DNA of 64,000 nt from Parcubacteria bacterium OLB19 (lineage in GTDB: Bacteria > Patescibacteriota > Minisyncoccia > Phycocordibacterales > UBA918), in contig JZEL01000029.1 in the NCBI GenBank assembly GCA_001567365.1, positions 17,525-81,524 of the forward strand, given 5' to 3'. The notes under the pieces were generated by a model. It was not told the DNA's origin. It saw only the letters and a list, made by a program, of their open reading frames with translations, and did not search any database. How positions within the stretch are numbered: position 1 is the stretch's first letter; every line of letters starts with the position of its first letter. Both the position numbers and the translations under genes were made by a program. Positions 33,528 to 39,684 of the stretch are shown in pieces.

Positions 33528-33576
33528 GGGGTGGAGGGGGCGGAAGCGAAGCTTCCGCCCCCTCCCTCCACCCCCC
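33528..33576. repeat. GC-rich near-perfect palindrome (ggggtggagggggcggaagc-gaa-gcttccgccccctccctccacccc) followed by C3-4A-rich repeats (to ~33612)
   Basis: About 20-bp stem with a 4-nt bulge and G-run/C-run strand asymmetry. A striking GC island in an AT-rich intergenic region upstream of the split tRNA. Confidence 0.5.
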
Positions 33577-33724
33577 TAAAAAACCAAACCCCTAAAATCC
33601 CAAACCGAAAAGGTTGAATATTGATTTTTTTTCTGTACAATAGGGTAACTTGATTTTTCAAGCTGTTCTTTGAGATATTGATTGTTTTACTCCGGTGTAG
33701 CTCAGCGGTAGAGCAGTCGACTGT

Positions 33725-34310
33725 GGACATTCGTCAATTTATGTTGATGATATACTTTTATATCATGATCAAAAAAAGAGACGAGAACCTATGCCGATCG
33801 TGCCGAGTACTTAAAATTAGCAGTTATCAAACGCCGTAAAAAAAGTGCGGGATATGGCTCTTGAGTACAAAGGTGGCAAATGCTGCATTTGCGGTTACAA
33901 TAAAAGTAAACGCGCACTTTCCTTTCACCATATAGATCCTAATAATAAAGACTTCGGTATTTCTTATCGAGGATTTACTAGGTCATGGGATAAAACTAAG
34001 ACCGAATTAGATAAATGCATCTTAGTTTGCATGAATTGCCACATGGAAATACACGACGGTATTACGCAGCTTCCGATAGAAATATCGGAATGAAAACAAG
34101 GTGAATTGTCTGGAAGCCCGAAACAGGTAAAGCTGTGGGTAATCAGCAGCCAAGCTTTTTGGTCAACGAGGCCGAACTGAAGGTTCAGAGACTATCCCTT
34201 ACGGGAGTACGGCTCGAAAGAGTTGGAAGCGCCTTGCACCCTATGATTTAAATTATTTATATCACGGGTGATGATATAGTCCATCCCTTTAGGAAACTTT
34301 TGGATAAATG
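33725..34310 (+). mobile_element. group I-like self-splicing intron (IC3-like core motifs) carrying an HNH homing-endonuclease ORF
   Basis: Exon ends in U and intron ends in G. The 3' part contains agccaagcuu and guucagagacuaucccuuacggga, resembling the P6/P7 (cagagacua) region of bacterial tRNA group I introns. An internal guide sequence was not confidently identified by eye. Confidence 0.5.
33845..34093 (+). CDS. HNH endonuclease (intron-encoded homing endonuclease candidate)
   Basis: 82 aa with CxxCG...HHIDP...N...CMNCH HNH/zinc motifs. Lies entirely inside the tRNA-Asn intron. Confidence 0.7.
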   Translation: MRDMALEYKGGKCCICGYNKSKRALSFHHIDPNNKDFGISYRGFTRSWDKTKTELDKCILVCMNCHMEIHDGITQLPIEISE

Positions 34311-34376
34311 TAATCGATTGGTCGCAGGTTCGAATCCTGCCGCCGGAGCAAAGAAATCAATATTCTTAAAAAATAT

Positions 34377-34420
34377 GAAAACGACCACTAGACTTCAGTT
34401 AGTGGTCGTTTTCATATTTC
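34377..34420. terminator. rho-independent terminator (gaaaacgaccacta-loop-tagtggtcgttttc)
   Basis: Perfect 14-bp stem followed by a T-tract immediately after the tRNA 3' exon. Confidence 0.6.
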
Positions 34421-37190: not shown

Positions 37191-38173
37191 TTAATTTATC
37201 TCAATATCAATATGTTTAACTTCGGGAAAATCCGTTTGGATTTTCTTTTCAATTTCGTCAATCTTAGTACCAATAATTCTTGGTATACGATCAGTGAAGT
37301 CTGAACAAAAGCGAACGAACTCAGGAAAGTTCTCTCTGGCAATTTCAAAATCTTCTCTTAAATGTCCAGTTTCGCGAATCTCTTTTAACAAAGCTGAGCC
37401 GTTAAATTCTACTTCACACTTAATTAAATATTCACCAATATTTAGATAAGTCGATTTAAAATCAATAACTTTTTCAATCGTAGGTTCTGCCTCCATCATT
37501 TCAATAATACTCTCCTTCATATCTTCCGGTATAGACCGCCCTGTTAAAAGTTCACGATTTTTATTGATTAAAATAACCGCCACACAAGCCAACATGATAC
37601 CAATAATCACTGAACTTATAGCATCACCATAATGCGTACCAGTGAAATAAGAAAAAGTGATACCGATAAGTGCTATCAGCACACCTAAAATCGCAATGCC
37701 GTCTTCATACAAGACCGCAATAGTCACAGGATCACCCTCTTTTAAAGTTTTACTAAAAGATGAACTTCGGGAATTTTTTCTTAACTCTCGATAAGCAACA
37801 TAAAAAGTAAATATTTCAGTCACCAAAGCCAAAAAAAAGAATTGAAAAAATCAAAGGTGACAAAATAACTTCTTGTGGATTTAATAAACTAGATATACCT
37901 TTATAAACAGTAATACCTGCCCCTAAAAAGAATACTCCACAAGCAGATATTAAAGACCAAATAAAAACGCTCATGACCATATCCGTAAGAATGTTCATTG
38001 TCAGCTTTCTTTTCCGATCGTTTAATACCTACCAGCAGCAGGGCTTGATTCATAGTGTCAGCCAAACTATGGATAGCCTCAGAAAACATTGCTGCCGAAC
38101 CAGACACAAAAAAACCAAAAAACTTGGCTAACATTAAAATAAAATTACCAGAAAGCGCAGCTACTACAGGCAA
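37191..38173 (-). pseudogene. cation diffusion facilitator (CDF/CzcD-like) transporter broken into three frames
   Basis: N-terminal piece …SGSAAMFSEAIHSLADTMNQ…HSYGYGHER, middle TM piece, C-terminal TM + cytoplasmic domain. Junctions fall near A8/A6 runs (~37840) and ~37990. Confidence 0.6.
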
Positions 38174-38253
38174 AAAACCCCTAGGAGCATTGTCTAAAAA
38201 ATATTTTTTGTAGTGTTCATGAGAAGTTAAAGCTCTTTCAGCAATAACAATGA

Positions 38254-39684
38254 GTGAATTATATCACGACTTATTCAGAACGTATATTTAATAAATTAAA
38301 AATTCTCCGCTCAAATCATATATACTTTACGTTCATGAATACAAACAATACCGATAACAAACTCACAACAGAACCTATACCTAGACTCTTAAAAATTATT
38401 GCCTTACCAGCCATGGTCGGTTTCTTTTTTAACACCATGTACAACGTAGTAGACACATGGGTAGCTGGACAAATTTCTGATGAAGCTCTAGCGGCACTTT
38501 CTCTTACCTTTCCTGTCTTTTTTATTATCATCGCTGTAGCCATGGGTATCGGTACTGGTGTTACTACTCTAATTGCCAACGAACTTGGAGCTGGCCGTAC
38601 ACAAAAAGCCCAACATTACACTTCTCAAGCTATATTATTTGGTTTAATAATTTCAATCGCCCTAACTATAATTGGGTACATCACCTCCCCTACTTTATTT
38701 AAATTACTAGGTGCAGAAGACACTTACCTAGCAAGCGCTCTTCTTTATATGCAGACCATATTTTTAGGTTCGATTTTCCTTAGTATGGCATCAATCTTAA
38801 ACGGTATACTTAACGCTGTCGGTGATACAAAATCATACAGAAATGTACTAGTGGTTGGGTTTTTTATAAATCTAATTCTTAGTCCGATGTTAGCGCTTGG
38901 CTGGTTGGGATTACCAGCTCTTGGTGTTTTGGGTATTGCCATCGCCACCATCATCAGCAATTTCCTCGGCTTTATATATTTATCTCACAAAGTTTGGCAA
39001 ACCAACTTAGTTGATACATCAAATATTTTTACTCCCAACAAAAAATCTTTCATAGATATTGCTACTCAAGGCCTGCCAGCCAGTTTCTCGATGATGACAA
39101 TTGCGCTCGGTGCTTTTATTATCACTTACTTTGTCAGTCAATACGGAAAAGAAGCAGTGGCTGGTTATGGCACAGCCTTAAGAATTGAACAAATAGCTTT
39201 GATACCAGCTATTGGCATAAATATTGCAGTACTAACTTTGATTGGACAAAATAATGGCGCTCAAAGATTTGATCGAGTCAAAGAAACGATCCGATATGGA
39301 CTTAAATATATTTTATTAATAAATACAATTTCAGCTTTATTTATACTTTTTGGCGCTTATTATTTATTAAAAATCTTCACAAATGCGCCAGAAATAATCG
39401 CTTTTGGTGCCGAGTATCTCACCATCGCGGCTTTAATTTCATGGGCATATGGCATTATATTTGTAACCGAATCAGTACTGCGAGGCTTGAAACGTCCTAT
39501 TTTTCCTATGATGATAGGAATAATGAGACAATTAATTCTTCCACTACCCATTTTCTACCTAGTAACTTTCACATTCACTTTAGGCATAATGGGCTTATGG
39601 TGGAGTATTTTTGCTATTGTTTGGTTATCGGCAATTATTTCGCTTTTATATACATACTCAATACTTAAGAAAACGAATAATTAA
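38254..39684 (+). CDS. MATE family efflux transporter
   Basis: 12-TM profile. N-terminal MATE motif …NTMYNVVDTWVAGQISDEALAALSLTFPVFF…. Confidence 0.8.
   Translation: MNYITTYSERIFNKLKILRSNHIYFTFMNTNNTDNKLTTEPIPRLLKIIALPAMVGFFFNTMYNVVDTWVAGQISDEALAALSLTFPVFFIIIAVAMGIGTGVTTLIANELGAGRTQKAQHYTSQAILFGLIISIALTIIGYITSPTLFKLLGAEDTYLASALLYMQTIFLGSIFLSMASILNGILNAVGDTKSYRNVLVVGFFINLILSPMLALGWLGLPALGVLGIAIATIISNFLGFIYLSHKVWQTNLVDTSNIFTPNKKSFIDIATQGLPASFSMMTIALGAFIITYFVSQYGKEAVAGYGTALRIEQIALIPAIGINIAVLTLIGQNNGAQRFDRVKETIRYGLKYILLINTISALFILFGAYYLLKIFTNAPEIIAFGAEYLTIAALISWAYGIIFVTESVLRGLKRPIFPMMIGIMRQLILPLPIFYLVTFTFTLGIMGLWWSIFAIVWLSAIISLLYTYSILKKTNN

Follow-up and report, generated by a model that had tools for sequence, protein, structure and literature searches.

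The window analysed here, a 64-kb stretch of DNA from Parcubacteria bacterium OLB19, contains at positions 33691-34348 a tRNA-Asn(GUU) gene that is split by a group I intron carrying a gene of the HNH endonuclease family. All features given below lie on the forward strand unless stated otherwise. With introns permitted, ARAGORN called tRNA-Asn(gtt) at 33691-34349 with an intron of 586 nt after position 35, i(35,586). With introns switched off, its default setting, it called no tRNA across the whole 64-kb window. The 5' exon (33691-33724) comprises the acceptor, the D arm, the 5' strand of the anticodon stem and the loop bases CUGU, and it ends in U35. The 3' exon (34311-34348) begins with UAA and continues with the 3' strand of the anticodon stem, the variable loop, the T arm, the 3' strand of the acceptor and G73; no CCA is encoded. 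The joined exons (34 and 38 nt, together 72 nt) were folded by ARAGORN into a canonical tRNA-Asn cloverleaf with the anticodon loop CUGUUAA, the anticodon GUU and G73, which is an identity element of tRNA-Asn. The last base of the 5' exon is U33724 and the last base of the insert G34310, and the insertion point lies between U35 and U36. This is the sole detectable tRNA-Asn gene within the window.

The insert (33725-34310) is an IA-like group I intron of 586 nt as deposited and probably of 584 nt in reality. The Rfam model RF00028 (Intron_gpI) matched positions 34003-34303 on the same strand with 75.6 bits, above its gathering score of 50 (E = 2.2e-17, model positions 1-253), and this was the only Rfam match in the window. 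The model's own placement of P1/P2 (34003-34037) was rejected as spurious, because it falls within the open reading frame (ORF), at a distance from the splice site. These results agree with an initial annotation of the locus, which had described a tRNA-Asn(GUU) split by a group I-like intron of about 586 nt with an HNH gene and had proposed a search with RF00028 and a P1-P9 fold of the insert as checks. Its 72-nt joined tRNA with the loop CUGUUAA, its upstream exon ending in U and its insert ending in G were recovered, as were all of its coordinates and sequence motifs; the Pfam match of the HNH gene and the covariation behind the fold are given below.

A hand-drawn P1-P9 structure was tested on a MAFFT alignment of 43 homologous introns from many phyla. 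Standard pairs were formed in 83.1% of cells, compared to 37-44% when the 3' partners were slid by 1-3 columns. The covariation score was 0.44, against at most 0.13 for the slid controls, and was reached by none of 500 shuffles. Two-sided changes were found in 50 of the 71 pairs, so that the fold is conserved and covarying. Downstream of P1, the hairpin P2 (UUCCGAUA-GAAA-UAUCGGAA, 34071-34090) showed two-sided changes within the family in all of its 8 pairs. The catalytic core (34097-34310) starts with P3 (34097-34103/34230-34236), in which three pairs showed two-sided changes and 98% of cells were paired. It continues with P4 (34107-34113/34143-34148), P5 (34116-34119/34137-34140), P5a (34123-34136), P6 (34150-34151/34182-34183) and P6a (34158-34176). 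P7 (34190-34194/34277-34281) is invariant in the alignment and is followed by P7.1 (34195-34206), P7.2 with a GAAA loop (34211-34224), P8 (34239-34268), P9 with a GAAA loop (34286-34303) and the terminal omega-G (34310). P4, P6, P6a, P8 and P9 covary.

P1 holds the 5' splice site. Its 5' strand (33721-33725) consists of the exon bases CUGU and the first intron base G+1 and pairs with CGCAG at 34065-34069, which includes the internal guide GCAG (34066-34069) with G34066 opposite U-1 (U33724). The segment GCAGC (34066-34070) was invariant in 43 of 43 aligned introns and is separated from the upstream splice site by 340 nt, so that the endonuclease gene is located within the loop of P1. Invariance in all 43 sequences was likewise seen for the U-1/G wobble and three more P1 pairs, and the pair of the first intron base (+1) covaries (AU 12, GC 8, CG 3, GU 2, UA 1). 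Another candidate for the guide, GUUGAUG at 33741-33747, would give a short P1; it was dropped as endonuclease-free relatives align the invariant GCAGC 34066-34070 as the 3' strand of P1.

These boundaries bear on the identity of the host tRNA. Loci of this kind are often preferred by ARAGORN and tFind as tRNA-Thr(UGU) with an intron at 33/34: ARAGORN gave Thr(tgt) i(33) for the near-identical L001, L002 and L004 as well as for many others, and the same Asn/Thr ambiguity has been described for published introns (PMC13011429). For the window itself, however, the ARAGORN call is Asn. If the host were tRNA-Thr, the intron would end in A and the U-G wobble register of P1 would be broken, while the invariant guide GCAG pairs with CUGU and not with the Thr boundary. 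Furthermore, the exons have G73 and match tRNA-Asn, and sequenced spliced products of a relative have the 35/36 junction (PMC13011429). We therefore give hardly any credence to a tRNA-Thr host and treat the gene as tRNA-Asn.

P7.1 and P7.2 decide the subgroup of the intron. In the scheme of Michel and Westhof, subgroup IA is marked by these extra hairpins between the 5' strand of P7 and the 3' strand of P3. Both are present here at exactly this place; all of their 8 pairs showed two-sided changes across the family, and 75-77% of cells were paired. IC3 introns have neither hairpin and are inserted at 33/34, 34/35 or 36/37, which differs from the present insertion at 35/36. The intron is thus IA-like and not IC3. 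The initial annotation had seen a resemblance of the P6-P7 core to IC3 introns. This resemblance is real, since the motifs concerned (GCCAAGC and GAAGGUUCAGAGACUA) are common to IC3 introns, but it is not diagnostic of the subgroup: the stretch 'aucccuuacggga' forms P7.1, P7.2 comes next, and the subgroup is IA.

The window could be assigned to its host by two exact protein matches, fmt (KXJ97843.1) and priA (KXJ97841.1), both from Parcubacteria bacterium OLB19. The host is a patescibacterium, OLB19 being a genus within Patescibacteriota in GTDB. Two metagenomic contigs, L001 and L004, are syntenic with the window (priA-like, def, fmt, HPF, DUF167 and glutaredoxin-like genes) and contain the same intron in the same tRNA-Asn. 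The exons are identical to theirs at 71 of 72 positions, with 33 of 34 in the 5' exon and 38 of 38 in the 3' exon, and the single difference (G27/A27) retains the pairing with U43. In contrast, the synonymous sites of the intron gene are saturated in the same comparison, with a synonymous divergence (dS) of 1.1-1.5. The exons are consequently under purifying selection, and the split tRNA-Asn gene has been kept functional. The intron core is homologous to introns that splice: it is 74% identical to the endonuclease-free tRNA-Asn intron of the Paceibacteria genome GCA_016699245.1 and 63% identical to the intron of GCA_016700035.1, which was spliced in vitro. Self-splicing of the latter was GTP-dependent and precise at 35/36, and a mutant with omega-G changed to C was blocked at the second step (PMC13011429). 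Judged by this homology and by the constraint on the gene, the OLB19 copy would be expected to splice as well.

Some observations weigh against a functional, self-splicing gene. The lack of a second tRNA-Asn is established for the 64-kb window only, P4 carries a bulged U (U34109), and P10 has at best 4 bp (UAAU with AUUA 34061-34064, judged by eye). A mild caveat is given by P9, which has three consecutive U-U mismatches. The locus could accordingly be a dead pseudo-tRNA that was broken by an ordinary insertion, with a separate intact tRNA-Asn serving the cell. The insert, however, is a group I ribozyme bounded exactly by U-1 and omega-G, and near-identical exons next to saturated synonymous sites speak against a dead gene. 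The same split gene is also found in at least 112 species genomes, and in-vitro splicing has been shown for relatives whose complete genomes contain no other tRNA-Asn copy (PMC13011429). A pseudo-tRNA is thus extremely improbable. It is highly likely that the tRNA-Asn at 33691-34348 is a functional gene of OLB19, interrupted by a mobile self-splicing IA group I intron with an HNH gene. P9 was also inspected in L001 and L004, where two or three consecutive U-U mismatches stand at positions at which other family members have Watson-Crick pairs.

Splicing is proposed to proceed in four steps. After transcription, the guide GCAG (34066-34069) would anneal to CUGU at the end of the exon and so create P1, in which the U-1/G wobble marks the splice site, and the P3-P9 core including P7.1 and P7.2 would fold. 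A free guanosine bound in P7 would then attack the 5' splice site. Finally, the terminal G34310 would replace this guanosine and the freed exon end would attack the 3' splice site, which would yield the 72-nt tRNA-Asn with the anticodon GUU.

The longest ORF of the insert as deposited encodes 82 aa (33845-34093) with a GTG start and holds the whole CxxC...HH...CxxCH core. It had been noted in the initial annotation as an HNH ORF, and it does match Pfam HNH; it is, however, only the 3' part of a gene of 108 codons (33765-34093) in the P1 loop of about 340 nt. The upstream pieces lie in two other frames, MIKK followed by ETRTYADRAEYLKLAVIKRRKK, and both continue published intact proteins. When one A was removed from each of two A7 runs, a single ORF resulted from ATG 33765 to TGA 34093. 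Comparison with intact relatives places a +1 frameshift in each run, the first at 33771-33777 and the second at 33838-33844, where relatives have AAAGAAG or AAAGAAA and are one base shorter.

The Pfam family HNH (PF01844) was matched with 22.6 bits by the 82-aa ORF and 21.7 bits by the 108-aa protein, a borderline pass at a cut-off of 21.4. A clear match was obtained to phrog_2255 'HNH endonuclease' (E = 2e-28). The motif residues of the repaired ORF are C39-x2-C42, H55-H56 and C88-x2-C91-H92-x3-H96. A sequence search of the PDB gave no significant match (best E = 0.079, the En domain of a group II maturase), and none was found in NCBIfam. Altogether, 793 homologues of the endonuclease were collected. 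The closest one, P0001, is encoded in L001, has 108 aa and is 93% identical over its full length, and the repaired ORF is colinear with four published HNH genes. The gene is under purifying selection: the ratio of non-synonymous to synonymous rates (dN/dS) was 0.026 against L001, within an overall range of 0.026-0.067. Of the differences in the 27 codons that precede the second shift, 13 are synonymous and 2 non-synonymous.

The OLB19 metagenome-assembled genome (MAG; bin OD1, JZEL00000000) was described by Speth et al. 2016 (PMC4821891). It was sequenced on IonTorrent PGM only, and the authors corrected 'persistent frameshifts, common in IonTorrent data' in annotated genes (PMC4821891). Both lesions of the endonuclease gene are +1 shifts in its two longest homopolymers, and the gene has no further lesion. 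Given the IonTorrent-only source and a dN/dS of about 0.03 against intact relatives, the two shifts are probably homopolymer overcalls, and the endonuclease gene is probably intact. They had at first been read as decay of the endonuclease, and this reading was reversed in view of the IonTorrent-only, corrected MAG, the dN/dS of 0.03 across the shifted part and a second homopolymer-broken gene in the window. The latter, a cation-diffusion-facilitator-like (cation-efflux) gene at 37191-38263 on the reverse strand, is split over three frames. Its shifts coincide with homopolymers (T5 at ~37963-37967 and A8 at 37831-37838) and are either residual IonTorrent errors or the mark of a pseudogene. The two probable errors in the intron hide a homing endonuclease of 108 aa in the deposited OLB19 sequence.

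Alternatively, the shifts could be real. The intron would then splice with a truly dead endonuclease as an immobile, vertically inherited element that has reached the decay phase of its homing cycle, after a very recent inactivation, and a truncated HNH protein of 82 aa lacking its N-terminus may still be made. The deposited sequence does have A7 at both sites, and about 45 other A7/T7 runs of the window lie in intact ORFs, a count qualified by the fact that the annotated genes of the assembly had been frameshift-corrected. Moreover, decayed genes are known in this intron family, namely with a frameshift (L064), with in-frame stops (L016) or as short remnants (L071, L020, L110 and L062), states that are expected from a homing cycle, and the majority of tRNA introns are without such genes. 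On the other hand, a genuine loss would have to have produced two +1 lesions, both in the longest homopolymers of an IonTorrent-only assembly, and no others. It would also have to be reconciled with the overall dN/dS of 0.026, with the predominance of synonymous differences in the 27 codons that would not be translated, with the intact genes of the same-locus relatives and with the second homopolymer-broken gene. We regard a dead endonuclease as unlikely.

A tracts are slippery for RNA polymerase and ribosomes, as established for longer A runs. The protein might hence be made in spite of real shifts by programmed +1 ribosomal frameshifting or transcriptional slippage on A7, giving rare, regulated synthesis. 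Both shifts lie in A7 tracts and the frame is under purifying selection across both of them, which would fit. Close relatives, however, have a single frame with AAAGAAG or AGAAAAG in place of A7, so that the runs do not represent a conserved recoding signal. Each protein molecule would require two independent events, and a sequencing artefact is the simpler explanation. Recoding is therefore very unlikely, and sequencing error in an intact gene is preferred.

The endonuclease gene overlaps the ribozyme. Its last nine codons (...GITQLPIEISE) are read through the 3' strand of P1 and through P2, which accounts for the conserved ...QLP... C-terminus in all relatives, and the stop codon TGA (34091-34093) directly follows P2. 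At the other end, a hairpin at 33747-33767 is predicted in the window, L001 and L004; its 3' strand extends into the beginning of the start codon ATG (33765-33767). It is kept in L001 (3977-4003) and L004 (3976-4003) with a compensatory change (GATATA/TATATC vs GGTATA/TATACC). The start-codon hairpin may serve as a translational control. With the start codon in a hairpin and the last codons in P1 and P2, this layout suggests that translation and ribozyme folding are likely mutually exclusive on one transcript.

The HNH product presumably acts as an endonuclease on tRNA-Asn: it would cut intron-less tRNA-Asn genes at the highly conserved DNA of the anticodon loop, and repair would copy the intron in. 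A pattern scan of GTDB species genomes gave at least 120 loci. Among the loci listed, 112 resolved as split tRNA-Asn genes, of which 54 came from groups of the Candidate Phyla Radiation (CPR) and the others from no fewer than twelve further labelled phyla; these were used, besides the published introns, for comparison with the OLB19 intron. Of the loci listed, 25 had a full-length HNH homologue. Introns with such a homologue outside Patescibacteria (L021, L036, L043, L044, L070, L082, L106 and L123) have 516-564 nt and come from MAGs labelled Deltaproteobacteria, Nitrospira, Elusimicrobia, Planctomycetes and Omnitrophota. The endonucleases of different phyla are 59-79% identical, and the G+C content of the introns tracks that of the host contig. 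Taken at their MAG taxonomy, these HNH-bearing introns suggest horizontal spread and extend the published statement that such introns occur in Patescibacteria only.

Two contigs labelled Ca. Pacearchaeota contain a split tRNA-Asn(GUU) with a group I insert at 35/36 as well, namely L012 at 1900-2210 (JAGVXA010000008.1) and L020 at 890-1400 (JAFCDH010000004.1). Their inserts have 258 and 423 nt, respectively, and that of L012 reached 83.1 bits on RF00028. The exons start with G1-C72, unlike all bacterial cases. The genes in their flanks encode TYW3 and a KH protein of the KRR1/PNO1 type, which are archaeal/eukaryal markers, as well as FtsZ and GatA, and judged by these genes the contigs seem to be truly archaeal. 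All archaeal group I introns published so far reside in rRNA, and a tRNA intron noted earlier in Pacearchaeota was dismissed as mis-binning (Williams, bioRxiv 2020).

Free-standing homologues of the endonuclease adjoin tRNA-Asn in two unrelated large phages, Bacillus phage Janet (L125:2095-2770, MF288922.1) and Erwinia phage Kaldavass (L127:1157-1789, PQ464595.1). In Janet, a 3' fragment of tRNA-Asn beginning with GGCTGTTAACC follows the endonuclease gene. In Kaldavass, the tRNA-Asn beside the gene is unannotated. A group I ribozyme is absent next to the homologues in both phages. Their position beside tRNA-Asn suggests, by genomic context, a tRNA-Asn DNA target of the enzyme family. Matches to the endonuclease were also found in Lak megaphages, with no tRNA-Asn or ribozyme nearby.

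The intron and its HNH gene may be one active mobile element that crosses phyla, and possibly domains, by homing into the near-universal DNA of the tRNA-Asn anticodon loop. This is supported by the 59-79% identical genes in tRNA-Asn introns of CPR, Nitrospira, Planctomycetes, Deltaproteobacteria, Omnitrophota and Elusimicrobia and by the same split gene on the Pacearchaeota contigs with archaeal marker genes, and jumbo phages with free-standing homologues flanking tRNA-Asn could be the vectors. We put this forward tentatively, with the balance tipping slightly against it. If true, it would exceed the published view of endonuclease-bearing IA introns that are confined to Patescibacteria, with limited horizontal transfer. 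The wide occurrence of the HNH-bearing form beyond Patescibacteria, the apparently archaeal loci and the homologues in phages may be of specialist interest; all of them rest on MAG labels.

Around the tRNA unit, a promoter-like site TTGAAT-16-TACAAT (33614-33641) lies about 50 nt upstream of the tRNA. It had 9 of 12 matches in a consensus scan, and this evidence is weak, as 7 such sites occurred in the region compared to 3.3 expected. Downstream, a hairpin of 21 bp followed by UUUCGUU (34371-34419; -28.9 kcal/mol, z = -10.5) is the probable terminator of the unit; a consensus terminator scan called none, this hairpin included. A G+C-rich, near-perfect hairpin, GGGGTGGAGGGGGCGGAAGC-GAA-GCTTCCGCCCCCTCCCTCCACCCC, was also observed at 33528-33574 (-43.9 kcal/mol, z = -7.4). 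It is flanked by the divergent glutaredoxin-like gene on one side and the tRNA promoter on the other, occurs once in the window and stands in a genome of 37% G+C. The practical value of the locus is mainly the corrected annotation and the flagging of probable sequencing errors: the tRNA-Asn of OLB19 escapes default tRNA finders, so that the genome appears incomplete, and this annotation gap is now fixed.

The arrangement at this locus has been described before. Nakagawa et al. (mSystems 2026, PMC13011429; preprint 10.1101/2025.07.03.662931, July 2025) surveyed 95 complete patescibacterial genomes and reported group I introns at 35/36 in 15 tRNA-Asn(GUU) genes; four of these introns encode HNH (PF01844) endonucleases. 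The initial annotation had considered a tRNA-Asn host with an HNH passenger unusual, which does not hold in view of these four patescibacterial cases. Nakagawa et al. assigned to subgroup IA 25 of the 28 introns at 35/36 as well as almost all tRNA introns of Patescibacteria; IA introns with an endonuclease at this position were found only in Patescibacteria, and horizontal transfer was viewed as limited (PMC13011429). The introns used here for comparison were taken from Table S3 of that study (PMC13011429) and include GCA_016699425.1 and GCA_023898525.1 with the gene, GCA_016699245.1 without it and GCA_016700035.1, the one spliced in vitro. They share with the OLB19 intron the host tRNA, the insertion site 35/36, the phylum and an IA-type core with P7.1. 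Their endonucleases belong to the same family, have 106-108 aa, are placed in the P1 loop and end in ...QLP... over GCAGCUUCC. The OLB19 intron differs in coming from a draft MAG outside the 95 genomes, in the two homopolymer frameshifts of its endonuclease gene as deposited and in the U-U mismatches of P9, and its sequence is distinct from all four published endonuclease-bearing introns. The OLB19 locus is thus a further example of an arrangement published for Patescibacteria in 2025-2026 and not a discovery; it adds one case to a recently described class and opens no new question. In an earlier survey, Williams (bioRxiv 2020) had widened the intron-bearing tRNA types from 4 to 21, which according to Nakagawa et al. 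include Asn '4Ug' (35/36) (PMC13011429). That survey differs from the present analysis in containing no structure, endonuclease or splicing analysis.

The classical IC3 tRNA introns are those of Azoarcus tRNA-Ile, cyanobacterial/plastid tRNA-Leu(UAA), tRNA-fMet and Agrobacterium tRNA-Arg. Where these contain ORFs, they are of the PD-(D/E)XK (I-Ssp6803I, tRNA-fMet) or LAGLIDADG type and not HNH (PMC13011429). Like the OLB19 intron, these self-splicing group I introns interrupt the anticodon loop, have U-1 and omega-G, form a compact P1 with the help of the anticodon stem-loop and share the P6-P7 motifs GCCAAGC...GAAGGU(U/G)(C/U)AGAGACUA. They differ in their insertion sites, in the absence of P7.1/P7.2 and in that they usually have no ORF. 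Phage introns of the IA type with HNH homing endonucleases, such as I-HmuI in the DNA polymerase gene of Bacillus phage SPO1, have protein-coding hosts and larger, nicking enzymes. An IA-like core with P7.1/P7.2 and an endonuclease of the HNH family are common to them and the OLB19 intron. Their enzymes differ in size and have no detectable sequence match to the OLB19 endonuclease in the PDB search, and the nearest virus families of the latter are phage HNH groups (phrog_2255).

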